Origin: a phage
Sequence record: PZ179882.1
DNA: 64,000 nt
Reading direction: 5' to 3' (one strand)
Within the stretch, counting starts at the first letter, position 1, and each line of letters opens with the position of its first letter. Made by a program: the position numbers and the translations under genes. Shown piece by piece: positions 5,464 through 62,543 of the stretch. The notes below the pieces were generated by a model. That model made no database searches. It saw only the letters and a list, made by a program, of their open reading frames with translations, and was not told where the DNA came from.

Positions 5464-5493
5464 AAATAAAAAAGGGAGAGCCGAGGCTCTCCC
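5464..5493 (-). terminator. Rho-independent terminator
   Basis: Hairpin gggagagc-cgag-gctctccc followed on the minus strand by UUUUUUAUUU. Confidence 0.6.
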
Positions 5494-5498
5494 TAAAA

Positions 5499-8420: not shown

Positions 8421-8520
8421 AGTAAACGTTTAATACATCAATCATTAAAACGATTGGGAATATACTCAAAACTATTAGTATTATAACTACATTCCATATA
8501 GCTTTAACAATCTTTTTCAT
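8407..8520 (-). CDS. Small membrane peptide (~37 aa)
   Basis: Track ORF 8407..8655 would run through the promoter at 8549-8578; internal ATG 8518-8520 (MKKIVKAIWNVVIILIVLSIFPIVLMIDVLNVYFGFM) lies just downstream of predicted transcription start. Confidence 0.35.
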   Translation of the reverse strand: MKKIVKAIWNVVIILIVLSIFPIVLMIDVLNVYFGFM

Positions 8521-8523
8521 TTT

Positions 8524-8578
8524 CTGTTCTTCCGTAGTTGATAGTTGTATAGTACCACGGAAGAACAGTCTTGTAAAC
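8524..8578 (-). promoter_or_regulatory. Early promoter with 11-bp inverted repeat straddling the -10
   Basis: GTTTAC 8578-8573, TGgTACTAT 8557-8549; IR arms ctgttcttccg (8524-8534) and cggaagaacag (8558-8568). Confidence 0.55.
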
Positions 8579-8763
8579 AACTTTTTTAAAAATATTCGTA
8601 ATAAATGTGAATACCAACTACTACCGCTGAAACCTGTGCAACCCACCACGCACAAGCAATAAGTACAGAATTCAAAATTTTCATAATAACCTCATCACAA
8701 AAGTAAATGTTAAACAAATTACTGGAATACTAATTAACCAAACAAAACACCACCATAATGAAC

Positions 8764-9054: not shown

Positions 9055-9084
9055 ATAGTACCACGGTCCTTGTAGTATGTAAAC
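9055..9084 (-). promoter_or_regulatory. Early promoter
   Basis: GTTTAC 9084-9079, 18-nt spacer, TGgTACTAT 9063-9055. Confidence 0.5.
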
Positions 9085-9658: not shown

Positions 9659-9744
9659 TAAACTTTCCTTTTACGTCGGAATCACTGATATTCATATAAT
9701 AAATCATAGTTTCTCTTAAAACAAAAGGGCCGAAGCCCTTTACT

Positions 9745-13334: not shown

Positions 13335-13364
13335 ATTATACCACATCCTTGTGGTAAAGTAAAC
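13335..13364 (-). promoter_or_regulatory. Early promoter cassette with spacer hairpin, fused to gene 39 stop codon
   Basis: 30-mer attataccacatccttgtggtaaagtaaac: minus strand TAG-overlapping GTTTAC, hairpin ccacaAGGAtgtgg in spacer, TGgTATAAT. Identical copy at 56871-56900. Confidence 0.6.
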
Positions 13365-15181
13365 TACTGGCTCATCCATTCTTTACGAAGGTCAGCATTA
13401 TCTCCCATGAGCATTTCAAAAAGCTCTTTCCAGTTCTCAGGAAGTTTAACAACATCATATACTGGATTTTGAATCATCTCACGATATTCAGATTTTTCCA
13501 AAGAGCCAAGTCCTTTAATATAACGGATGCTATGTTTAGGTAGAGCATCTTTAGCACTCTCATATTCAGCGACTGTATAAAACCATTCTTGTTTTTTACC
13601 AATCTGTGCGATGATTACAGGAGTTTTGACAAAGCGAATTCGTCCTTGCTCAAACAGTTCTGGCCAATTACTAAAAAATCCAAGCAGAGAAGGATAAATG
13701 CTTCCTAGACCATCATGGTCAGCATCAGTCATAATAGCAATATTATGATAATTCAAGTTTTCAGCTTTTTCACCGAGAACTAATCCAGTGATTGCGCAAA
13801 TATCAAACAGTTCTTTGTTTTTAAGCATGTCAGCATATGACATACCCCAACTGTTGAGAACTTTACCACGTAATGGATAACCACCGTGAAGTTCTTTATC
13901 ACGAACATCAATAAGATATCCGATAGCCGAATCACCCTCAGTCAAGAAAAGAGTAGTATCAGCATCTTTACCACAAAGATTCGCTTTAATATGTTTATGA
14001 ACCTTAGCTTTAGAAGCCTTTTTAGCTGCTTTAGTTTCTGCTGCTTTTTCTGCCGCTAATTTACGAGCCAAAGCAGCTTCAATAATCGGCATTAGAATTG
14101 CTTCATTATTTAGAATAGCACGTGAAATCTTTTTAGCATCAAGTTGAATATGACTACGGATTTCACCAAATGGAGAAGTCAAACGCTCTTTAGTTTGAGA
14201 ATCAAATCGCATGTTTTTCATATCACGGACAAACATAACGATAGTCAAACATTCTTTAACGCGTGCTTTAGTCACATCAATTTTGAACTTACGTTTGATT
14301 TGTGGAATAAGGTCTTCACAAATATCATCCATAACACAGTCAATGTGATGGCCACCATTCTTAGTGTGAATGTTATTCACATAAGTTAATTGACGAAAAC
14401 CATCCGGTGAACGACCAACCGCAATAGAGCAATTTTCTTGTTCTTGAACGATAGCATGCTCATCATATTGGCGTGCATATTTCTTAAAATTGCCCTGAAC
14501 CTTTTTACCATTAAAGGTAAATTGAATATCAGGATAAACTACTGCAAGTGTCTGGAGACGATCTAGTGTAATGTCAAGATAAACTTGGGACAGCTCATTA
14601 GTTTCAAATGACATAAAATCAGGAATGAAAGTAACACGAGTTCCTTTCCATTTTCCTGGAATAGTTTCCCATGATTTATTTTCCATGCCATTTGAACAAC
14701 GAACTACAATATTATTTTGACCATCACCAGTTTCACCGACAAACATCACAGAAAAAATGTTTGTCAAACTAGAACCAACACCATTCATACCGCCAGTGAC
14801 GCGTTCTTTATCATCACCAAAGTTACCACCTGCTTTTGGAATAGTCCATGCAGCAACAGGACCAGGAATTTCTTCACCAGTAGGTGTTTTAACCATCGCC
14901 TGTGGAATACCGCGACCGTTATCTTCAACTGTTACTTGATTGTTTTTAATAGTAACATTAATTTTATTTGCGAATTTAAACTTAGTACGAATACCTTCAT
15001 CTACTGAGTTATCGATAATTTCATCAATAAGCTTAACAAGACCAGGTACATACTGAACACTTTCCCATTTACCAAACAGAAAGCGCTCATGCATTTCATT
15101 AGCGGAAGAGCCAATGTACATGCCGCTACGCTTTTTGATATGTTCAATATCGCTCAGAATTTTAATTTCATTCTTAATCAT
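13364..15181 (-). CDS. 39: DNA topoisomerase II large subunit gp39 (GyrB-like, ATPase plus TOPRIM in one ORF)
   Basis: Track ORF starts at GTG 15182-15184; ATG at 15179-15181 gives MIKNEIKILSDIEHIKKRSGMYIGSS as in T4 gp39. One continuous 605-codon frame including the TOPRIM motif IMTDADHDG that T4 encodes in separate gene 60. Confidence 0.92.
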   Translation of the reverse strand: MIKNEIKILSDIEHIKKRSGMYIGSSANEMHERFLFGKWESVQYVPGLVKLIDEIIDNSVDEGIRTKFKFANKINVTIKNNQVTVEDNGRGIPQAMVKTPTGEEIPGPVAAWTIPKAGGNFGDDKERVTGGMNGVGSSLTNIFSVMFVGETGDGQNNIVVRCSNGMENKSWETIPGKWKGTRVTFIPDFMSFETNELSQVYLDITLDRLQTLAVVYPDIQFTFNGKKVQGNFKKYARQYDEHAIVQEQENCSIAVGRSPDGFRQLTYVNNIHTKNGGHHIDCVMDDICEDLIPQIKRKFKIDVTKARVKECLTIVMFVRDMKNMRFDSQTKERLTSPFGEIRSHIQLDAKKISRAILNNEAILMPIIEAALARKLAAEKAAETKAAKKASKAKVHKHIKANLCGKDADTTLFLTEGDSAIGYLIDVRDKELHGGYPLRGKVLNSWGMSYADMLKNKELFDICAITGLVLGEKAENLNYHNIAIMTDADHDGLGSIYPSLLGFFSNWPELFEQGRIRFVKTPVIIAQIGKKQEWFYTVAEYESAKDALPKHSIRYIKGLGSLEKSEYREMIQNPVYDVVKLPENWKELFEMLMGDNADLRKEWMSQ

Positions 15182-15208
15182 CACTTATCCTCGTTTGGTT
15201 TCGGGAAT

Positions 15209-16333: not shown

Positions 16334-16432
16334 TACAATTTCCTCATTAATTGAACATTGGAGCGATGCGTTTCAGAAGAGTATCAGCACCTTTAACGAA
16401 TTATCCATTTTATTCTCCAAGTTGTTTTCTGT

Positions 16433-16475
16433 ATCAGTAGTTGATATTGATATAGTACCATAATCAACTACTGAT
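16433..16475 (-). promoter_or_regulatory. Extended -10 promoter-like element inside a 13-bp perfect inverted repeat
   Basis: TGgTACTAT (16460-16452); IR arms atcagtagttgat (16433-16445) / atcaactactgat (16463-16475); no canonical -35. Confidence 0.4.
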
Positions 16476-16504
16476 GTATATAGTTTTATGAAAAATTTTA
16501 AACT

Positions 16505-17002
16505 TTATGCACAGCGAGCTTTGCTATAGTGTTTAATCCAACTTTCAGGAATGACTTTGTATGTTCCTAAAAATACCGCGTTGTACAACTTAACGCCATC
16601 TTCTACCCACTGATCGGTAATGTATGCGCACATAGCACGAGTACGGTGTTTTTGAACAACCCCTTCCTCATCTTCAGTAAATTCGAATTCATAAGGAGCA
16701 ATGAACTTAATAGCTTGACCGAGTTTCCACTTAAAGTCTACACCTACATGCGAAGTATCAATCGTTTCAATTCCTTTAGCAGGAACAGCTTTCAAAAACG
16801 CAGGCTCAAGAAATTTCCATCGAACATAACCAAACTGAGGTTTAGACTTTCCATCTTTAGGAATGATACGCACTTTTACTTCAGAATCTTCATCTTTAAC
16901 GCCGTGTTTAAGCTGAATGCTTACAATTTCGACCAATTTTCCTGCTGCTTTAGAACGGGATTTATCAGATACACGAGCAATTTCACCAATATTAATAATC
17001 AT
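16505..17002 (-). CDS. motB: motB-like protein, 165 aa
   Basis: Position and size similar to T4 motB; shares C-terminal motif TDQW(V/I)EDGV with the next ORF (paralog). Confidence 0.45.
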   Translation of the reverse strand: MIINIGEIARVSDKSRSKAAGKLVEIVSIQLKHGVKDEDSEVKVRIIPKDGKSKPQFGYVRWKFLEPAFLKAVPAKGIETIDTSHVGVDFKWKLGQAIKFIAPYEFEFTEDEEGVVQKHRTRAMCAYITDQWVEDGVKLYNAVFLGTYKVIPESWIKHYSKARCA

Positions 17003-17046
17003 AGTTATCTCTCACTTGTTAAAAAGATTTTATACTCCACGGAACC

Positions 17047-17076
17047 ATTATACTCTGGTCCCAAGAGTTTGTAAAC
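17047..17076 (-). promoter_or_regulatory. Early promoter between motB paralogs
   Basis: GTTTAC 17076-17071, 18-nt spacer, TATAAT 17052-17047. Confidence 0.5.
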
Positions 17077-17626: not shown

Positions 17627-18127
17627 TTATCTCATTTCAATAAAATCTACGAGTTCAGCATGCGATTTGCGGAACATTACTTGGTGCCTGCCAATGATAA
17701 CTTGATCATCTGGAACTTCGTATACAGCGAGATAAAATCCTTTAGAAGATAATTCTTCCCGCTCTTCTCGTGTGAACCATCTCATCATATCATATTCACT
17801 AGCGAAAGCAAAATGATAAAGAGCTATAAACCATCCTGGAATATGATATTCTACTCCAACATAATCTTTCTTGAACTTAGTATTAATTACTATATTAGCG
17901 TTTTTAACTAATAGTTTATCTTCGTGTGGTAAAGGAATTCTTTTATTATTATCGCTATGATGCATAAAATTAGGTCTGTCATAACCTACGTGTAATAGCC
18001 ACTCTTCGCTCCATGAATCTATTATACTCCTGTACGGCGTTATTTGAACACAAAGATTTCGACGTATTGTTATAGCATCTTCACAATCAAGAATACTAAA
18101 CGATGATTCAACACGATAAATTTTCAT
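17627..18127 (-). CDS. Hypothetical protein, 166 aa
   Basis: Track ORF 17627..18166 begins at TTG; ATG 18125-18127 with GAGGA SD is downstream of promoter 18155-18184. Confidence 0.5.
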   Translation of the reverse strand: MKIYRVESSFSILDCEDAITIRRNLCVQITPYRSIIDSWSEEWLLHVGYDRPNFMHHSDNNKRIPLPHEDKLLVKNANIVINTKFKKDYVGVEYHIPGWFIALYHFAFASEYDMMRWFTREEREELSSKGFYLAVYEVPDDQVIIGRHQVMFRKSHAELVDFIEMR

Positions 18128-18154
18128 TTTATTATCCTCAGTAGCTATGGTGTT

Positions 18155-18184
18155 ATAATACCACAACTAACCGAGGAAGTAAAT
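18155..18184 (-). promoter_or_regulatory. Early promoter downstream of dexA
   Basis: ATTTAC 18184-18179, 18-nt spacer, TGgTATTAT 18163-18155. Confidence 0.45.
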
Positions 18185-19375: not shown

Positions 19376-20695
19376 TCATACATAAAACACATCATAACGA
19401 CCACGTGTTACACCAACATAAAGAAGCTGCTGAGCTAGTTCAACATCTGCATAATGAATACAAGGAGTATAAATGAATGCACGGTCTACAGACATACCCT
19501 GAGCTTTGTGGAATGTTGATGCAGGAAGTGCTTTCACTTTACTGAACTGTGATTTAGCATCCCAAAAATCACTCCATGGAGCTTTTCCACCTTTATTCCA
19601 ATTTTTGTACGTTTCTGCCGTTTTACCTAAAAATAGGTTAAACTTATACAGCTCTTCATCAGATGAAATTATTTTAATCTTTTCACGATAATATTCATCA
19701 TCGCCGTAAGTTTCTACTGTTAAATCCCAATGACGAATTAGATATTCTCCAGGAACACCACGAGCTTTAACAAATGTTGATGTATATTCTGCTTCTATAA
19801 TACGAACTAACTGTCCGTTATTAAAAATAATTTCTGACACAGGCTTTCCATCAATTTTATATGTTTTAATTAATGGTTCCTGCATTACAATAATTTCACC
19901 GACAATAAAATCTTTATCAGTTTCAAAAATCTTTTTACGAATAATGCTATTTAACTTATCAACAGATTTATTCGTAAATGCCATTACACGATTTTCAAAC
20001 AAATCATCTAGTGATTTTACGATTGAAAAATAATTTACCATAAAATCGCGTAAAGCGGTATCACCAGTAAATCCACGTACTCCATGTCCGTCAACAATTT
20101 TATCATAAATCCACTTACCGTTGCGAACATCAGTAGCTACATCAATAATAGGAGCATTACTGCGTTTAACTTCAGTGAGTTCACATTGATAAAAATCTTT
20201 GTGCGTAAAGAATGGACTGATATAAGCAGTGTTTTCTCCTGGGTCAACAGGTCTAATTTGCTTATTATCGCCTATTCCAATTATAGTACACCAAGGTGGA
20301 ATAGTTGAAAGCAGAATTTTAAATAGCTTTCTATCATACATTGATACTTCGTCGCAGATTAATACTCTGCATTTAGCTAAATCCGGTACTTCTTTTTGTT
20401 CAAAAAGAACGTTTTCTTCGTATGTTACTGGGTTAATTTTAAGAATACTGTGAATAGTACTCGCTTCTTTCCCTGATAGTTTTGAAAGAATCTTTTTAGC
20501 TGCATGTGTAGGAGCTGCTAAAATAATTCCAGTTTCGCCCGTAGATATTAAAGCTTCAATGATGAACTTAGTAAGAGTAGTCTTACCAGTACCAGCAGGT
20601 CCATTAATAGTTACATGGTGTTTCTTTTCTTTGATAGCCCTCATAACGATGTTAAAGGCATTTTTCTGGCCTTCGGTCAAATCATCAAATGTCAT
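19376..20695 (-). CDS. dda: Dda DNA helicase (SF1B)
   Basis: 439 aa; Walker A GPAGTGKT; MTFDDLTEGQKNAFNIVMRAIKEKKHHVTINGPAGTGKTTL matches remembered T4 Dda; ATG verified 20693-20695. Confidence 0.92.
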   Translation of the reverse strand: MTFDDLTEGQKNAFNIVMRAIKEKKHHVTINGPAGTGKTTLTKFIIEALISTGETGIILAAPTHAAKKILSKLSGKEASTIHSILKINPVTYEENVLFEQKEVPDLAKCRVLICDEVSMYDRKLFKILLSTIPPWCTIIGIGDNKQIRPVDPGENTAYISPFFTHKDFYQCELTEVKRSNAPIIDVATDVRNGKWIYDKIVDGHGVRGFTGDTALRDFMVNYFSIVKSLDDLFENRVMAFTNKSVDKLNSIIRKKIFETDKDFIVGEIIVMQEPLIKTYKIDGKPVSEIIFNNGQLVRIIEAEYTSTFVKARGVPGEYLIRHWDLTVETYGDDEYYREKIKIISSDEELYKFNLFLGKTAETYKNWNKGGKAPWSDFWDAKSQFSKVKALPASTFHKAQGMSVDRAFIYTPCIHYADVELAQQLLYVGVTRGRYDVFYV

Positions 20696-22470: not shown

Positions 22471-23090
22471 TCAACTACCTCAATATCATACACTTTAAAT
22501 GTTCCAAATGAATCGTGTAATTTTTCTTTTGAAATAGAAGTTATTTTATACTTTCCAATTGGAATCATCCATTCTTGTTCACGCACAATCATCATTAAGT
22601 TATCAGTACGTTCTGAATCTAATCCATCAGTATCTTCATATGTATACTTAAACTCAGTGTTAGGAGAAGAAAGTATAATATCGCTAATATGGTCAGAATA
22701 ATTAAAAGCTTTATCAGTTTTTAAGCGAAATATTATTTCAGTGAAATACTCAACATAAGAAAAACCGCATGCTGTGTGCAAACTAGTAGTAAATGAATCT
22801 ACTCTGTTCGTTGAAAACACTTCTCCGACTTGTAAATCTTTAATGAGCTCTTTTGTCGATTTTGATATACCACGATATAACTGATAAGGTGATTCAGTTA
22901 AATGCTTTTTAATGATTTTATTCAACTGCCGATGAAGAGCTTCATTCTTTTTGGCTTCCATACATTGCCAAAGAATTGACTGTTCAAAGTCAGTAAATTT
23001 TTCACAGACCTTTTTATACATATCATATTGAAAATCAACGCTTTCAGCTTTTATAGATAACTGTTCAACATCTGCAAGATTAATAATCAT
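22467..23090 (-). CDS. modB: ADP-ribosyltransferase ModB
   Basis: 207 aa, size and position of T4 ModB; stop overlaps modA start (ATGA). Confidence 0.8.
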   Translation of the reverse strand: MIINLADVEQLSIKAESVDFQYDMYKKVCEKFTDFEQSILWQCMEAKKNEALHRQLNKIIKKHLTESPYQLYRGISKSTKELIKDLQVGEVFSTNRVDSFTTSLHTACGFSYVEYFTEIIFRLKTDKAFNYSDHISDIILSSPNTEFKYTYEDTDGLDSERTDNLMMIVREQEWMIPIGKYKITSISKEKLHDSFGTFKVYDIEVVE

Positions 23091-23157
23091 GATAGCCTCC
23101 GTATACTTCAGAAGCTATCATATCATCGTTAGAAAGGAAAGTAAACAACTTTTTGAA

Positions 23158-25269: not shown

Positions 25270-25294
25270 GAAAAAAGGACTCCCGAAGGAGTCC
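25270..25294 (-). terminator. Rho-independent terminator downstream of soc
   Basis: Hairpin ggactcc-cgaa-ggagtcc; minus-strand U6 tract. Confidence 0.6.
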
Positions 25295-25302
25295 TTTAAT
25301 TA

Positions 25303-25539
25303 TTAACCATCTATTGCTGTAGGTGTGAACATTGCAGCATTCTTAGTTTTCCAATCAGCTGCATCAGAAACTACAGTAGAATATGCTGCCTTTTCTGACG
25401 GAAAGATTTGATAATGAGAATCTGCGATACGATGCTCGTTAGAATAAATTTCAAACGGAACAGAAACTTCCATACCTTTAACTTCTTTGCCTTCACCCGC
25501 TGGATGAGTAAAGGTCTTGATATTAACGAAACCACCCAT
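25303..25539 (-). CDS. soc: Small outer capsid protein Soc
   Basis: 78 aa; VNIKTF...HYQIFPSEKAAYSTV matches remembered T4 Soc core; terminator hairpin downstream. Confidence 0.8.
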   Translation of the reverse strand: MGGFVNIKTFTHPAGEGKEVKGMEVSVPFEIYSNEHRIADSHYQIFPSEKAAYSTVVSDAADWKTKNAAMFTPTAIDG

Positions 25540-25747
25540 AATAAACTCCTTTATTGTTTAATTACAGGTGTATTTATATCAATCTTCAATGAAAACTTGT
25601 GCTAGGAATTCGTGTTCATCATGATTTGTTTATATAAAGCCATTATAGCATTTATATTAGAGCTATCTACTTTAAGTTGATAAGCATACCACTCGTGTAA
25701 ATTAATTAAAGCTTTTTGACGTCTAATAAGTTCTTCTTTGGATATTT

Positions 25748-28651: not shown

Positions 28652-28906
28652 CTATTTTATTTCCTCAAGTTCGTTAATCAATAAAAGTTCTCTGACGCTA
28701 AAAACAAAGAAAAATGTGTTCCCATCAACCAGAGCATGACCGCTAATAGAACACCCTCTGCGGAATTTAGAAACTTCACAATCTAGAACTGTAAAGGGTT
28801 TTAATCCTATGACTTTAGCTGTGCGTCTATTCAGTTCACAACCACTTGCGAATTTTTCCAAATCTTCTTCTGATTTAAACTGATATTCTCTATTAACTAG
28901 CATCAT
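28652..28906 (-). CDS. Hypothetical protein, 84 aa
   Basis: ORF track; downstream of promoter 28938-28967. Confidence 0.5.
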   Translation of the reverse strand: MMLVNREYQFKSEEDLEKFASGCELNRRTAKVIGLKPFTVLDCEVSKFRRGCSISGHALVDGNTFFFVFSVRELLLINELEEIK

Positions 28907-28924
28907 TTTCTTTTCTCCGCGATT

Positions 28925-28967
28925 AGCTGATAGAATTACTATAACACAACTCTATCAGCTTGTAAAC
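28925..28967 (-). promoter_or_regulatory. Early promoter with 10-bp inverted repeat straddling the -10
   Basis: GTTTAC 28967-28962, TATAGT 28943-28938; IR agctgataga (28925-28934) / tctatcagct (28951-28960). Confidence 0.55.
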
Positions 28968-28969
28968 TA

Positions 28970-29212
28970 CTATTTTACTAGCATCAATAACTGTTTCTCT
29001 AACTTGACGATTTTACGAAAGTATCTTTTGCATTGGCGAATCTGTCGCTTCGTAGGGCGCACAGCAAACTTAATAAATTCCACTCGACCAAATGGAGGAC
29101 TTTCTTCTGCTGGAATATCTAACACCAATTCCCACGTATCTGCAACAAGTGCTTTGAATTGAGTATTTTTCCTGACATTATACGGAGTAGGTTTAAATAA
29201 AACAATATGCAT
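28970..29212 (-). CDS. Hypothetical protein, ~80 aa
   Basis: Track ORF 28970..29254 trimmed to ATG 29210-29212 (GAGGA SD) so that it abuts the dmd stop instead of overlapping dmd by 40 nt. Confidence 0.45.
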   Translation of the reverse strand: MHIVLFKPTPYNVRKNTQFKALVADTWELVLDIPAEESPPFGRVEFIKFAVRPTKRQIRQCKRYFRKIVKLEKQLLMLVK

Positions 29213-29213
29213 A

Positions 29214-29396
29214 TTATCCTCGGCAATCCACTTCACATACTTTCTTGTCATCAATGAAAGCTTTAACTAATGCTTTATTAACTTCAGCATATTGAGTAGT
29301 AGCCCATTGAACGTCATCTTTCATCATTGTGATTTCTTTAGTAAACATGCTTTCATTCTTAAACCACCCCATAAAAACTACCTTTACCAATTCCAT
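29214..29396 (-). CDS. dmd: Dmd, antitoxin against host RnlA/LsoA RNases
   Basis: 60 aa, MELVKVVFMGWFKNESMFTKEI matches remembered T4 Dmd (gene 61.5), adjacent to gene 41; own early promoter upstream. Confidence 0.75.
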   Translation of the reverse strand: MELVKVVFMGWFKNESMFTKEITMMKDDVQWATTQYAEVNKALVKAFIDDKKVCEVDCRG

Positions 29397-29416
29397 AACA
29401 ATCTCCTCATTTAACC

Positions 29417-29455
29417 GACAAGACTACTATACCATAGTCTTGTCAGCTTGTAAAC
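29417..29455 (-). promoter_or_regulatory. Early promoter of dmd with 10-bp inverted repeat; -35 fused to gene 41 stop
   Basis: GTTTAC 29455-29450 (C shared with TAG stop of 41), TGgTATAGT 29434-29426; IR gacaagacta (29417-29426) / tagtcttgtc (29435-29444). Confidence 0.55.
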
Positions 29456-35141: not shown

Positions 35142-35171
35142 ATAGTACCATGGAAGAACAGTCTTGTAAAC
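35142..35171 (-). promoter_or_regulatory. Early promoter downstream of gene 43 terminator
   Basis: GTTTAC 35171-35166, 18-nt spacer, TGgTACTAT 35150-35142. Confidence 0.55.
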
Positions 35172-52243: not shown

Positions 52244-52713
52244 TTTAAACTCTTTCTAAGCTGCTTCTTAAATGAAGCTATTAACTGTGTTTTAGTATCA
52301 GATTCATTATATTCAAATCCTCTTTGAAGCATCTCGGCCATCATTTCCTCTTTTCCTAAACGAGAAAATTCCTTTGATTTATCTCCAACAAAGTTAGGGT
52401 GAATATTATTTTGGGTGTAATCGGATTTTAAATAAGTAAGTAAATTTTCTAACCATTCAAGATAATCAACACCTTGTCCCTTTAAGCCAGAACGATTAAA
52501 TTTATGCTTCATTTGACCTTCTGCGGCATTGCAGAGATTACAAAGCAATCCACGTATCTTTCCTGCTTTTGGTCCATTTAATTCATGGTCATGATCAAGA
52601 TGATTAGCTTGAACATCAGGATTTAGTTCTCGTTGGCAAATTAAGCATTTACCGTTTTGTGCATTATAAAATTTTTGTTTTTCTTCTTTGTATAATTTGC
52701 CAGTCAATAACAT
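52240..52713 (-). CDS. 49: Endonuclease VII gp49 (Holliday junction resolvase)
   Basis: 157 aa; MLLTGKLYKEEKQKFYNAQNGKCLICQRELNPDVQANHLDHDHELNG matches remembered T4 endo VII. Confidence 0.92.
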   Translation of the reverse strand: MLLTGKLYKEEKQKFYNAQNGKCLICQRELNPDVQANHLDHDHELNGPKAGKIRGLLCNLCNAAEGQMKHKFNRSGLKGQGVDYLEWLENLLTYLKSDYTQNNIHPNFVGDKSKEFSRLGKEEMMAEMLQRGFEYNESDTKTQLIASFKKQLRKSLK

Positions 52714-52755
52714 AATAAAACCCTTACCTTAAATAGATAAGGGTATTTATTATTT

Positions 52756-59289: not shown

Positions 59290-59817
59290 TTATGCGAGTA
59301 CCGTCTTTAACCGTTCTTCAAACTTCCGAAGAGTATTTTGGCGTTCAGCTCTTTGCTTTTTGTAAGTTTCAATACGCTCTGAAATGAGAGAGTATCGTTC
59401 ATTTACTGATTCTTTCATAAAATCAGGAATTTCACGAGAAGCTTTAATCTCGTCAAATTTATCAATAACAGCTTGCTCTTCAGCAATTAAGTTATCATAC
59501 ATTAAAATATCTTTCTTGATGAACTCAATATCTTCTTGAGTTACACGAGACATTTTAGATGCTTTATCCTTTTTGTACTGTTCGTTAGTATCACGAGACC
59601 AGTGTAATGTACGATTTTTATTCGTATTCTTGTAAATTTCTACAATACCGATCTCATCAATAATAACGATCCAATTCCAACGGGATTTGTAAATTTGTCC
59701 TCCATCAACAGTGATTTCACCTCCGATTGAGATGTCGTTAAAGAACTTGCTTTGCGCTTCAGATTTAAATTTGCCATCGTTGTAATTTACTAAGTTGAAA
59801 ATATCTTTAGCGTTCAT
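59290..59817 (-). CDS. Hypothetical protein, 175 aa
   Basis: ORF track; ATG verified; GGAGG SD lies inside inverted repeat of promoter 59846-59875. Confidence 0.55.
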   Translation of the reverse strand: MNAKDIFNLVNYNDGKFKSEAQSKFFNDISIGGEITVDGGQIYKSRWNWIVIIDEIGIVEIYKNTNKNRTLHWSRDTNEQYKKDKASKMSRVTQEDIEFIKKDILMYDNLIAEEQAVIDKFDEIKASREIPDFMKESVNERYSLISERIETYKKQRAERQNTLRKFEERLKTVLA

Positions 59818-59820
59818 TTT

Positions 59821-59875
59821 CTGTTCCTCCGTAGTTGATAGGGTAATAATACCACAGAGGAACAGTCTTGTAAAC
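59821..59875 (-). promoter_or_regulatory. Early promoter with 9-bp inverted repeat straddling the -10
   Basis: GTTTAC 59875-59870, TGgTATTAT 59854-59846; IR ctgttcctc (59821-59829) / gaggaacag (59857-59865); the transcribed arm contains the GGAGG SD of the 175-aa gene. Confidence 0.55.
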
Positions 59876-59877
59876 CA

Positions 59878-60192
59878 CTAAAAGAAACTTCTTTCACAAT
59901 TTTTTCCACTGAACCATGCACTTACCGCTTTCTTGGTCTCAGGAGCAGTGTTATCCATAAACCATTCAAAGGCAGCCTTTTTATGATTCTGGAGGGCTTC
60001 TCGGGCTTTAATCTGCTCACGGTCTATTAACACTAACATATGAGCCTTTCTTGTCACCATGGACTTCTTATGATTTTTTGAATACTCCCAGTCATTTGTC
60101 CATCGCATTGTCGTTGCGAATTGAAATACTGCTTCTTTAATTTTAGTTTCGTAAATTTCACGAGCCTTTGAGTATAACATCACTACCTCCAT
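59878..60192 (-). CDS. Hypothetical protein, 104 aa
   Basis: ORF track; ATG verified. Confidence 0.5.
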   Translation of the reverse strand: MEVVMLYSKAREIYETKIKEAVFQFATTMRWTNDWEYSKNHKKSMVTRKAHMLVLIDREQIKAREALQNHKKAAFEWFMDNTAPETKKAVSAWFSGKNCERSFF

Positions 60193-60262: not shown

Positions 60263-60982
60263 TTAGGATTCTTCTAAATGTCTTTTCTGAAAAGTTGATA
60301 CCATACTACGATACGGTTCATTTGGATACCCGTGTTTTATAGCTTCCTTTGTAAATTTTCTCCATCCATATTTAGTTTCTTTCCAAAGCTCGAATAATTC
60401 ATCTTCATATTGCCATATAGTTAAATGAGAACGCTTTGCAGCTTTAATTCCATTAATATGCTTTTCTTTTACTACAGGATTACTTAGTTTCTTTTTAATA
60501 ATATTACTAACTTTTCTAACAAAAACTGGGTCCTTATATCGTTGCGAAGTTTTTATTGAAGTGTTTAATTTAGCTTCCGGTGTGGATGTGACCTCTTTCA
60601 TCTTTTTCTTCATATGCTGTATATGATTAGGATTTTTCCATAAATTTATAGAATGCTTTTTGCATTTTATCCTAGTTTCATCTGCAACCTTTCCTCCTTC
60701 ACCTCCGTATGACAGGTTAACACAGTTTTTTCCATATTTCAATTTACCTGCCATGATATATAATATTTCAGCTTGTACCATTTTATCATAATTATCAAAA
60801 ACTTCTAAAACCGTTTTTGTTAATATGTGGTCATTTGACACTTTTACACGTTCTATATAATTTCCACTACCAACATACGAATCATTGATGTTATTAGTTA
60901 TATGTCGACCATAATAGTATTTCTTAATACCTGTCTTTAAATTTAATATTTCAGTTTTATAGATAGTAAAATATTTTTTCAT
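60263..60982 (-). CDS. Basic 239-aa protein, possible degenerate GIY-YIG/Seg-like homing endonuclease
   Basis: N-terminus TIYKTEILNLKTGIKKYYYGRH...YVGSG loosely resembles GIY...YIG; C-terminal Lys-rich repeats (KLSNPVVKEKHINGIKAAKRS) resemble NUMOD-type DNA-binding modules. Weak, motif-level only. Confidence 0.45.
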   Translation of the reverse strand: MKKYFTIYKTEILNLKTGIKKYYYGRHITNNINDSYVGSGNYIERVKVSNDHILTKTVLEVFDNYDKMVQAEILYIMAGKLKYGKNCVNLSYGGEGGKVADETRIKCKKHSINLWKNPNHIQHMKKKMKEVTSTPEAKLNTSIKTSQRYKDPVFVRKVSNIIKKKLSNPVVKEKHINGIKAAKRSHLTIWQYEDELFELWKETKYGWRKFTKEAIKHGYPNEPYRSMVSTFQKRHLEES

Positions 60983-62513: not shown

Positions 62514-62541
62514 AAATAAAAAAGGGAGCCCGAAGGCTCCC
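62514..62541 (-). terminator. Rho-independent terminator downstream of nucleotidyltransferase gene
   Basis: Hairpin gggagcc-cgaa-ggctccc plus U-tract. Confidence 0.6.
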
Positions 62542-62543
62542 TA

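Follow-up and report, generated by a model that had tools for sequence, protein, structure and literature searches.

Several sigma-70-type early promoters of a T4-like phage lie within inverted repeats that probably fold as hairpins in read-through RNA

Early promoters and inverted repeats of the window

The 64,000-nucleotide stretch of phage DNA in sequence record PZ179882.1, hereafter the window, is approximately 96–98% identical to Tequatrovirus (T4-like) phage genomes and is colinear with T4 from approximately 160 kb through rIIB/rIIA to approximately 56 kb. The element considered here is a short cassette that maps between T4 ndd.5 and ndd.4, in which an early promoter, an inverted repeat and the Shine-Dalgarno (SD) sequence of ndd.4 overlap, together with its counterparts elsewhere in the window. 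The stop codon of the upstream open reading frame (ORF) is located 8 nt before the -35 element of this promoter. The window genes are on the minus strand, and the inverted repeats are therefore to be read on this, the coding, strand.

An earlier note on this DNA, made from the sequence alone, flagged the ndd.4 site and four others as early promoters whose -10 is bracketed by the arms of an inverted repeat. On the minus strand these are T4-type early promoters of the form GTTTACA, 17 nt, TGGTAyTAT, followed by an SD and ATG, with TATACA in place of GTTTACA at the second site. Alignment to T4 assigns promoter 8577 to ndd.4, 16480 to a short leader ORF before cef, 29454 to dmd and 59874 to nrdC.8, while 28966 is the promoter of an 84-codon ORF (ORF84), which is absent from T4. 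Each of the five repeats is present, straddles an early-promoter -10 and has a perfect Watson-Crick core, of 12 bp at 8524-8568, 13 bp at 16433-16475, 10 bp at 28925-28960, 10 bp at 29417-29444 and 9 bp at 59821-59865. The stems reach 13–15 bp on the minus strand once G·U pairs are allowed, and the perfect complementarity that was claimed for the arms holds for the cores and not for the full stems, which contain G·T. The list of five was also incomplete, as hairpins of the same kind are found at 18183 (motB.2), 17075 (motB) and 23145 (modB).

Inverted repeats are in excess in the window as a whole. Perfect repeats of at least 9 bp with loops of 3–30 nt number 29, against 11.4 +/- 2.6 in dinucleotide shuffles, and those of at least 12 bp number 3, against 0.25; a promoter -10 occupies the loop in five of the 29, where chance would give about 0.1 by a rough author estimate that was not computed. 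The read-through RNAs of the window hairpins fold with z scores of -2.8 to -8.3. The strength of the duplex between spacer and downstream sequence is bimodal among 21 window promoters, seven having values of -17 to -25 kcal/mol and the rest lying within the range of cross-pair controls, in which the spacer of one promoter is combined with the leader of another (chimeras). A wider sample of 126 IMG/VR loci around relatives of nrdC.8, denB, gp41 and dexA, with T4 added, contained 231 unique early promoters of the T4-like type. Among these, 27% form a duplex of -16 kcal/mol or stronger, against 2.1% of the cross-pair controls, and a gapless helix scoring at least 8 is formed by 50 of the 231 (21.6%) and by 1.8% of chimeras. 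These 50 hairpins represent 20 independent sequence clusters.

No promoter or stem-loop feature is annotated at these sites in the T4 records NC_000866 and AF158101, and an Rfam scan of the whole window matched no family. The hairpin promoters nevertheless belong to a kind that has been described, the “promoter-early stem-loop” (PeSL) cassettes, which the earlier note had rediscovered.

Two hairpin geometries

The hairpins have two main geometries. In the -10 clamp (dmd, ORF84, cef leader, motB), the 3' part of the spacer serves as arm 1 and arm 2 begins at the end of the -10, with a loop that consists essentially of TGnTAnnA; the SD is located 1–24 nt downstream (mostly 3–12 nt) and is unpaired. 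In the SD clamp, arm 2 comprises the SD, and arm 1 follows either the -35 (ndd.4, nrdC.8, motB.2) or the -10 (modB and several relatives). In the 18-bp stem of modB, the -10 together with the nucleotides that follow it is paired with the SD and AUG. An SD had been noticed in the transcribed arm of the nrdC.8 repeat, 59821-59835, where it is indeed found, and the ndd.4 arm at 8524-8538 likewise contains one (GGAAG). With the start predicted 7 nt past the -10, transcription would begin in the loop between the arms in all 15 SD clamps, and in or beyond arm 2 in 34 of the 35 -10 clamps, the remaining one starting in the loop.

The predicted probability that the SD is unpaired in the transcript of the embedded promoter and in read-through RNA, respectively, is 0.92 and 0.00 for ndd.4, 0.84 and 0.00 for nrdC.8, 0.92 and 0.00 for motB.2, and 0.97 and 0.00 for modB. 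Among 229 promoters, 39 have the SD masked more strongly than all, or all but one, of 25 chimeras, where 13.7 would be expected. Orthologues of motB.2 located behind dexA have five different arm solutions in five lineages, with a read-through SD accessibility of at most 0.04 in every case, while unrelated genes at the same position do not have a masked SD. Similarly, nrdC.8 orthologues of other lineages have different arms with the SD still paired (all at most 0.02). The predicted SD mask follows the downstream gene. The -10 clamp, for its part, recurs after gene 41 in several lineages, where neither the arms nor the genes downstream are related, and lineages with a canonical terminator after gene 41 lack it there.

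Covariation and strand asymmetry

Comparison of the arms indicates that selection acts on pairing and not on arm sequence. The earlier note had argued that arms which differ between sites and yet pair point to selection rather than to shared ancestry. Selection on pairing is borne out, but the five arm sets are not independent: the 8577 and 59874 cassettes are paralogous, and arm 1 begins with the same six bases at 28966 and 29454. Covariation was measured in an alignment of 47 promoters in one register, where 86.4% of the cells are paired, against 35–48% with the partner slid; as the promoters were chosen for pairing, this percentage is circular, whereas the diversity of pair types is not. 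Both sides have changed in 11 of 13 pairs, and double changes occupy 136 cells, against 53.6 +/- 7.9 in shuffles.

The comparison with relatives that the earlier note had proposed gives the same picture, with pairing kept by different arms at orthologous sites. The ndd.4 stem has three G·U pairs in T4 and one in the window. Among ndd.4/nrdC.8-type arm pairs of the sampled phages, CTTCC/GGAAG, CTTCC/GGAGG and CCTCC/GGAGG are all seen, and CCTCC/GGAAG never is; four further GenBank copies of this cassette added no new pair state. At the gene 41 junction, one stem pair is found as G-C, G·U and A-U in three loci (L030, L034 and L033, respectively). Compensatory changes in close relatives, as read from these alignments, pass through G·U intermediates.

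The kind of mismatch that is tolerated discriminates between the strands. Both kinds of transition mismatch were scored symmetrically inside the 50 helices, where G·T corresponds to a wobble pair in the sense strand and A·C to one in the antisense strand. The stems contain 25 G·T and 2 A·C mismatches, while the G·T fraction of the chimeric-helix null is 0.57 (p = 5e-5); after collapse to the 20 sequence clusters the counts are 13 and 2 (p = 0.015). Mutational bias was considered as a source of the G·T excess and ruled out, since background transitions between the window and T4 stand at 1112 to 883, with the null at 0.57. Sense folding is also stronger than antisense folding at seven of seven window sites. 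The asymmetry fits a structure that forms in sense-strand RNA.

Probable read-through transcription of the upstream arm

The earlier note held that the upstream arm is not transcribed and that the repeat is therefore no simple mRNA hairpin, which is true only of RNA begun at the embedded promoter. The upstream arm is very probably transcribed by read-through from the abutting upstream gene. A same-strand stop codon lies 0–12 nt before the -35 in 91–100% of hairpin promoters and in 57% of the others (p = 0.02), the window sites being scored with the exception of the cef-leader site (TATACA -35); at the motB.2 and modB junctions of the window this distance is 7–12 nt. Hairpins are missing from all window promoters that have a long upstream gap. 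A scan of two junctions, those of ndd.4 and nrdC.8, found no terminator-like site between the nearest upstream promoters and 8577 or 59874. Early RNAs of T4 are known to extend into downstream genes (PMC2988021).

Proposed function

The inverted repeats probably encode RNA hairpins of read-through transcripts, which at the SD-clamp genes mask the ribosome-binding site. In the tightly packed early region, a sigma-70-type early promoter fills the whole space from a stop codon to the following gene's ribosome-binding site, so that a hairpin placed there is written across the promoter. The embedded promoter would start approximately 7 nt past the -10, at a position within an arm or between the two, and its own RNA, without the 5' arm, would stay open. 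RNA from upstream promoters would contain both arms and fold, the hairpin thus forming only in polycistronic read-through transcripts. At ndd.4, nrdC.8, motB.2 and modB, where the 3' arm is the SD (and at modB also the AUG), ribosomes would be kept off the read-through RNA, and translation of the gene would be limited to the RNA of its own early promoter, during the first minutes of infection. For ndd.4, the flagged site, such masking is the most likely function, a view held with moderate confidence.

At dmd, ORF84, the cef leader and motB, the shorter hairpin would hold only the -10 and leave the SD free. For the -10 clamp the most likely, still tentative, role is that of delimiting the upstream message at its 3' end, as a barrier, a stabiliser or an attenuator; the candidate functions are a 3' barrier, an attenuator, an insulator and a sense-strand DNA hairpin.

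The hairpins at modB (with identical sequence), motB.2, nrdC.8 and motB are present in T4 as well, and the time-resolved proteome of that phage allows a cross-check (PMC9697503; label-free quantification values, x1e6). MotB.2 and ModB, both SD-clamped, stand at 46 and 38 at 3 min and at 50 and 40 at the last time point, respectively. Over the same interval DexA.2, encoded upstream of motB.2, goes from 27 to 242, MotB.1, encoded downstream of it, from 30 to 300, and ModA.3, encoded upstream of modB, from 49 to 847; ModA, encoded downstream of modB, goes from 54 at 3 min to 133 at 12 min, and ModA.2, encoded directly upstream of modB, is first detected at 5 min and then climbs (PMC9697503). These neighbours are in the same direction as the clamped genes. 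Flat MotB.2 and ModB among rising neighbours are the outcome expected if one cistron of a read-through RNA is masked.

Several observations weigh against this explanation. The mean SD accessibility of all promoters in read-through RNA equals that of chimeras (0.37 and 0.39, Wilcoxon p = 0.18), and as only the tails differ, SD masking is confined to a subset. The SD is paired in only four of eight window hairpins, so that masking leaves the -10 clamp class unexplained. From the G·T asymmetry, RNA cannot be told apart from a DNA hairpin of the sense strand. The start sites and the read-through RNA of this phage are themselves deductions, and a literature search turned up no T4 start-site or Term-seq data set. 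In the proteome, the flat MotB.2 and ModB values are near the detection floor, and turnover of the proteins, or cutting by RegB within the SD, could produce such profiles as well; the motB.2 SD, GGAUAAUAAAA, fits the RegB consensus. The case of NrdC.8 is uninformative, as its neighbours are flat too, and the ndd.4 protein was not detected in the T4 proteome (PMC9697503). Proteins of -10 clamp genes keep accumulating, MotB from 207 to approximately 1500 and Dmd from 48 to approximately 118 (PMC9697503). Finally, a PeSL stem-loop of phage RB49 lowered expression of downstream lacZ as the rrnB T1 terminator does (PMC2839356).

It may be suggested, more tentatively, that sigma-70 early promoters inside SD-sequestering hairpins constitute a widespread translational gate in T4-like phages, with ndd.4, nrdC.8, motB.2 and modB, the last encoding a toxic ADP-ribosylating and RNAylating enzyme, translated only from their own RNA and silent on abundant read-through RNA. 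As part of the same proposal, the hairpin could also shield an intercistronic GGAG from RegB, and the gate would apparently have been rebuilt in each lineage with different arms and even a different geometry. If so, this would explain a puzzle of the T4 proteome, in which the same early RNAs give early, middle or late proteins (PMC9697503), and the burst-only levels of products such as ModB despite stacked promoters and almost no terminators. PeSL cassettes would change from “promoter plus terminator” to elements with a testable logic at the RNA level. A promoter start between two arms would provide a search rule for gates in other compact phage genomes, and the arrangement would offer a natural design for making a cistron depend on its own promoter in genome engineering and synthetic operons.

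The cassettes and their surroundings

The positions of the cassettes and their arms are given in Table 1.

Table 1. Early-promoter hairpin cassettes of the window and their parts
Feature	Positions	Strand	Details
ndd.4 promoter-hairpin cassette (flagged site)	8518..8577	-	-35 8572-8577; -10 8549-8554; predicted start near 8542; start codon 8518-8520
ndd.4 arm 1, CTGTTCTTCCGTGGT	8554..8568	-	spacer and first -10 base; 15 bp with arm 2, one G·U
ndd.4 arm 2, ACTACGGAAGAACAG	8524..8538	-	includes SD GGAAG at 8529-8533
nrdC.8 promoter-hairpin cassette, paralogue of the ndd.4 cassette	59815..59874	-	-35 59869-59874; -10 59846-59851; start codon 59815-59817
nrdC.8 arm 1, CTGTTCCTCTGTGGT	59851..59865	-	stem 15 bp, two G·U; z = -5.2
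nrdC.8 arm 2, ACTACGGAGGAACAG	59821..59835	-	includes SD GGAGG at 59826-59830
motB.2 cassette (not in the earlier note)	18125..18183	-	-35 18178-18183; -10 18155-18160, in loop; start codon 18125-18127
motB.2 arms	arm 1 18160-18177; arm 2 18135-18151	-	arm 2 includes SD GAGGA 18135-18139; 17 bp, one bulge; z = -8.3
modB cassette (not in the earlier note)	23082..23145	-	-35 23140-23145; -10 23117-23122, inside arm 1 (23109-23127)
modB arm 2	23082-23101	-	covers SD GGAGG (23096-23100) and start codon (23088-23090); z = -4.2
dmd cassette, -10 clamp	29394..29454	-	-35 29449-29454, directly after gene 41 stop; -10 29426-29431; start codon 29394-29396
dmd arms	arm 1 29434-29448; arm 2 29413-29427	-	15 bp, three G·U; z = -4.8; SD 29403-29408 unpaired
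ORF84 cassette, -10 clamp	28904..28966	-	-35 28961-28966; -10 28938-28943; start codon 28904-28906
ORF84 arms	arm 1 28947-28960; arm 2 28925-28938	-	14 bp, two G·U; z = -2.8
cef-leader cassette (in the motB–cef interval)	16406..16480	-	-35 TATACA 16475-16480; -10 16452-16457; start codon of 11-codon leader ORF 16406-16408
cef-leader arms	arm 1 16463-16475; arm 2 16433-16445	-	13 bp perfect core; z = -5.0
motB cassette, -10 clamp (not in the earlier note)	17000..17075	-	-35 17070-17075; -10 17047-17052; start codon 17000-17002
motB arms	arm 1 17056-17068; arm 2 17034-17047	-	13 bp, one bulge; z = -4.2

The ndd.4 and nrdC.8 cassettes (68 nt each, 8515-8582 and 59812-59879) are one dispersed repeat. 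Copies of the ndd.4 form number 2240 in 548 phage records, approximately four per genome; a pattern scan of IMG/VR for ndd.4/nrdC.8 cassettes returned only nine copies, from contigs already sampled. Between the -10 and arm 2 lies a block, ACAACTATC or TACCCTATC, which is swapped, along with the arm variants, between the ndd.4 and nrdC.8 loci in different phages (T4 and Shigella phage sb4); this suggests ectopic exchange between cassettes. Two half-decayed cassettes of the ndd.4 type are found on the minus strand, at 35170 with arm 1 (AGACTGTTCTTCC) and no partner, and at 9083 with arm 2 (CTACAGAGGAACA) and no partner; the SD is masked in neither.

The 11-codon leader ORF, MDNSLKVLILF*, at 16373-16408 (-) has a strong SD and is located between hairpin promoter 16480 and cef. 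It is kept in T4 as MENSLKVLILF*, where it is unannotated. ORF84 (28652-28906, -) matches the goF-like family phrog_2980 (E = 3e-20) and, compared with T4, forms with its hairpin promoter an inserted cassette located between 61.4 and the sp promoter, 28660-28988 replacing T4 20120-20145. A homing-endonuclease ORF of 239 amino acids at 60263-60982 (-), which matches phrog_314 (E = 2e-30), is located between nrdC.9 and nrdC.10, where T4 has nothing. Pfam returned nothing for ORF84, this 239-residue ORF or ndd.4.

At approximately 13364-15200 (-) the window lacks T4 segment 2794-3910, in which 60.1, mobA and the translational-bypass region of gene 60 are found, and a 606-codon ORF ends at promoter 13363 (-); the large-subunit gene of the topoisomerase (39 plus 60) is therefore apparently unsplit in this phage. 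For the T4 segments with mobB, mobC, I-TevII and the segA/beta-gt block, no alignment was found in the window.

The spacer of promoters 56899 and 13363 (-), which are 43 kb apart and have an identical 29-nt core, is a small hairpin, ACCACA-AGGA-TGTGGT, in which the extended -10 is paired to the 5' part of the spacer; weaker forms are found at 9083 and 5441. Canonical terminators on the minus strand at 62523-62542, 25274-25297, 5473-5494 and 9724-9741 have GC-rich stems, UUCG- or CUCG-type tetraloops and a T run. Wherever genes are separated by a long gap, the early promoter has such a terminator immediately upstream; this is the “stem-loop upstream of promoter” form of PeSL, in contrast to the hairpins that span a promoter.

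Alternative explanations

The role proposed for PeSL cassettes in the literature, in which the stem-loop terminates or attenuates upstream RNA and the dispersed cassette serves mainly as a site of homologous exchange that shuffles small ORFs among T4-like genomes, is not mutually exclusive with masking of the ribosome site, although it is rather unlikely to be the main explanation. The lacZ result with RB49 speaks for it, as do the dispersal of the 68-nt cassette with the exchange of its ACAACTATC/TACCCTATC blocks and the insertion of ORF84 with its hairpin promoter, and PMC4122927 ascribes a swap of ndd.4/ndd.5 between T4 and phage PST to flanking PeSLs. Gene 41 junctions that have a promoter also mostly have a hairpin, be it a canonical terminator, a -10 clamp or a small one within the spacer, as judged by eye. 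The earlier suggestion of a recombination substrate thus agrees with the published proposal, and mosaic exchange of cassettes is compatible with it; recombination, however, needs sequence identity and not intramolecular pairing, and explains neither the compensatory changes, nor the G·U bias, nor an SD pairing that tracks the downstream gene. As to termination, the 8 nt that follow the 50 hairpins contain on average 1.2 T and 4 A, and at least five T in none of them, so that the hairpins are not canonical intrinsic terminators, and this candidate was rejected. The canonical terminators of the window differ from them in their GC-rich stems, tetraloops and T runs, the terminator scans of window junctions do not list the hairpin sites, and the complementary distribution of hairpins and upstream canonical terminators is only a trend (1 of 50 versus 17 of 181, p = 0.13). 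A less probable explanation is that of an RNA boundary element, which would protect the 3' end of the upstream cistron after an endonucleolytic cut in the A-rich leader, or shield GGAG from RegB, with any effect on translation being secondary. The -10 clamps are located directly after the upstream stop and 1–24 nt (mostly 3–12) before the A-rich leader, hairpins are kept after gene 41 whatever gene follows, and RNA secondary structure protects GGAG from RegB, most middle transcripts being resistant, according to PMC3014915. Processing at these sites is, however, an assumption, the SD clamps track the downstream and not the upstream gene, and several clamped SDs are poor RegB sites, such as GGAAG of ndd.4 (window) and GGAGGCU of modB.

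The direction preferred in the earlier note was a structure at the DNA level, either a cruciform or a non-template-strand hairpin that shows the -10 in its loop and tunes promoter opening on supercoiled DNA. In its favour, the commonest geometry has one fixed register centred on T-12/A-11, where melting starts, found in 49 of 183 promoters and in 3.4% of chimeras, and the G·T bias would also fit a hairpin formed by the sense DNA strand alone. The register, however, also follows from arms placed as close as possible to the constrained TGnTAnnnT block, and a cruciform, which pairs both strands, would need to tolerate the A·C hairpin of the other strand, yet A·C-type mismatches are avoided by 25 to 2. 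A purely promoter-level role would not need hairpin promoters to be those abutting an upstream gene, and SD clamps, with loops of 15–24 nt and the ribosome site paired, are without a rationale at the DNA level. A DNA-level structure is accordingly regarded as quite improbable. Least credible of all is that the arms have no function as a pair, their complementarity being inherited from duplicated cassettes or arising by chance in AT-rich DNA, or that they are half-sites of a dimeric DNA-binding protein. Promoters 8577 and 59874 are indeed copies of one cassette, and the half-copies at 35170 and 9083 show that arms can decay, but the 12- to 13-fold enrichment over chimeric controls, the 20 independent clusters among 50 hairpins and the compensatory changes through G·U intermediates stand against it, and lack of function is disfavoured by the covariation statistics. 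The dimeric protein site that had been suggested is excluded, as far as one protein reading one sequence is concerned, by the diversity of the arms, which form 20 families. The complementarity is not equal on the two strands, and the same half-site is not found everywhere, as would be expected of a cruciform or a palindromic operator.

Comparison with known systems

The cassettes have the layout of PeSL elements. A forerunner of these was reportedly described for T-even IP loci by Repoila et al. in 1994. PeSL, comprising an early promoter, a stem-loop and an SD, was described in RB49/phi1 (Arbiol et al. 2010, PMC2839356) and later (Comeau et al. 2014, PMC4122927) in PST and T4, including the ndd.4/ndd.5 junction. 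Both have an upstream stop in an AT-rich tract at the 5' end, an early promoter with a stable stem-loop overlapping or adjoining it, and an SD and ATG at the 3' end. In the scored window sites the distance from this stop to the -35 is put at 0–8 nt. The promoters are of the sigma-70 type (TTTACW, 17 nt, TAYWAT for the T4/PST group) and are located between co-directional genes. The PeSL papers also note stems with G-T pairs, and in both cases the copies are dispersed, in variable early regions and next to indels, although few junctions were examined in this respect. The stem-loops of T4 and PST are placed “just upstream” of the promoter by Comeau et al., while those described here span the -10 or connect the spacer with the SD. 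The roles put forward in the PeSL papers are termination or attenuation, and recombination, by which cassettes would give mini-circles; the present hairpins are without U tracts. The word “translation” does not occur in the 2010 paper, and the accessible text of the 2014 paper is silent on translation.

Intrinsic terminators and intercistronic stabiliser stem-loops likewise place a stable stem-loop right after the stop codon in a polycistronic message, but intrinsic terminators have tetraloops and a U tract, while the loops here are of 6–24 nt and the U tract is absent in all 50. The hairpins of homing-endonuclease genes (Aeh1 mobE and T4 segB) resemble the SD clamps in that a small accessory gene, lying in an early region of T4-like type, has its ribosome-binding site covered by a cis hairpin in read-through RNA; they differ in that, in the accessible text of the source, no inner promoter is described and the genes are mobile endonucleases (PMC3014915).

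The closest analogy is provided by the T4 genes e, soc, 49 and I-TevI, in which hairpins sequester the initiation region and a late promoter is embedded (Uzan and Miller 2010, PMC3014915). In these the SD and/or AUG is in a helix in long transcripts, and the inner promoter gives translated transcripts without the 5' arm. The same pairing of SD and/or AUG in the longer transcript is predicted for ndd.4, nrdC.8, motB.2 and modB, and not for dmd, ORF84, the cef leader and motB. The hairpins of gene 49 (52711-52754) and soc (25533-25578) are also present in the window on the minus strand, with a late promoter resembling TATAAATA, and fold alike, the gene 49 region with z = -4.1. The embedded promoter of the cassettes is, however, of the sigma-70 early type and not the gp55 late type (TATAAATA), which makes them functional analogues and not members of the e/soc/49/I-TevI group. 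With an early promoter in place of the late one the logic would be inverted, translation being tied to the first minutes of infection.

In its accessible text, the review of T4 post-transcriptional control lists hairpins that sequester ribosome-binding sites only with late promoters or homing-endonuclease genes (PMC3014915), and a literature search, which left out the 2003 T4 genome review, turned up no paper on early promoters inside such hairpins. The SD clamps are predicted to be the device of the e/soc/49 hairpins, here formed around an early promoter. Such an SD gate would be a variation on a T4 mechanism that is already known and a modest refinement, not a new class of element: the promoter-plus-hairpin cassette is already known, and gating of the SD by an early promoter is the addition.

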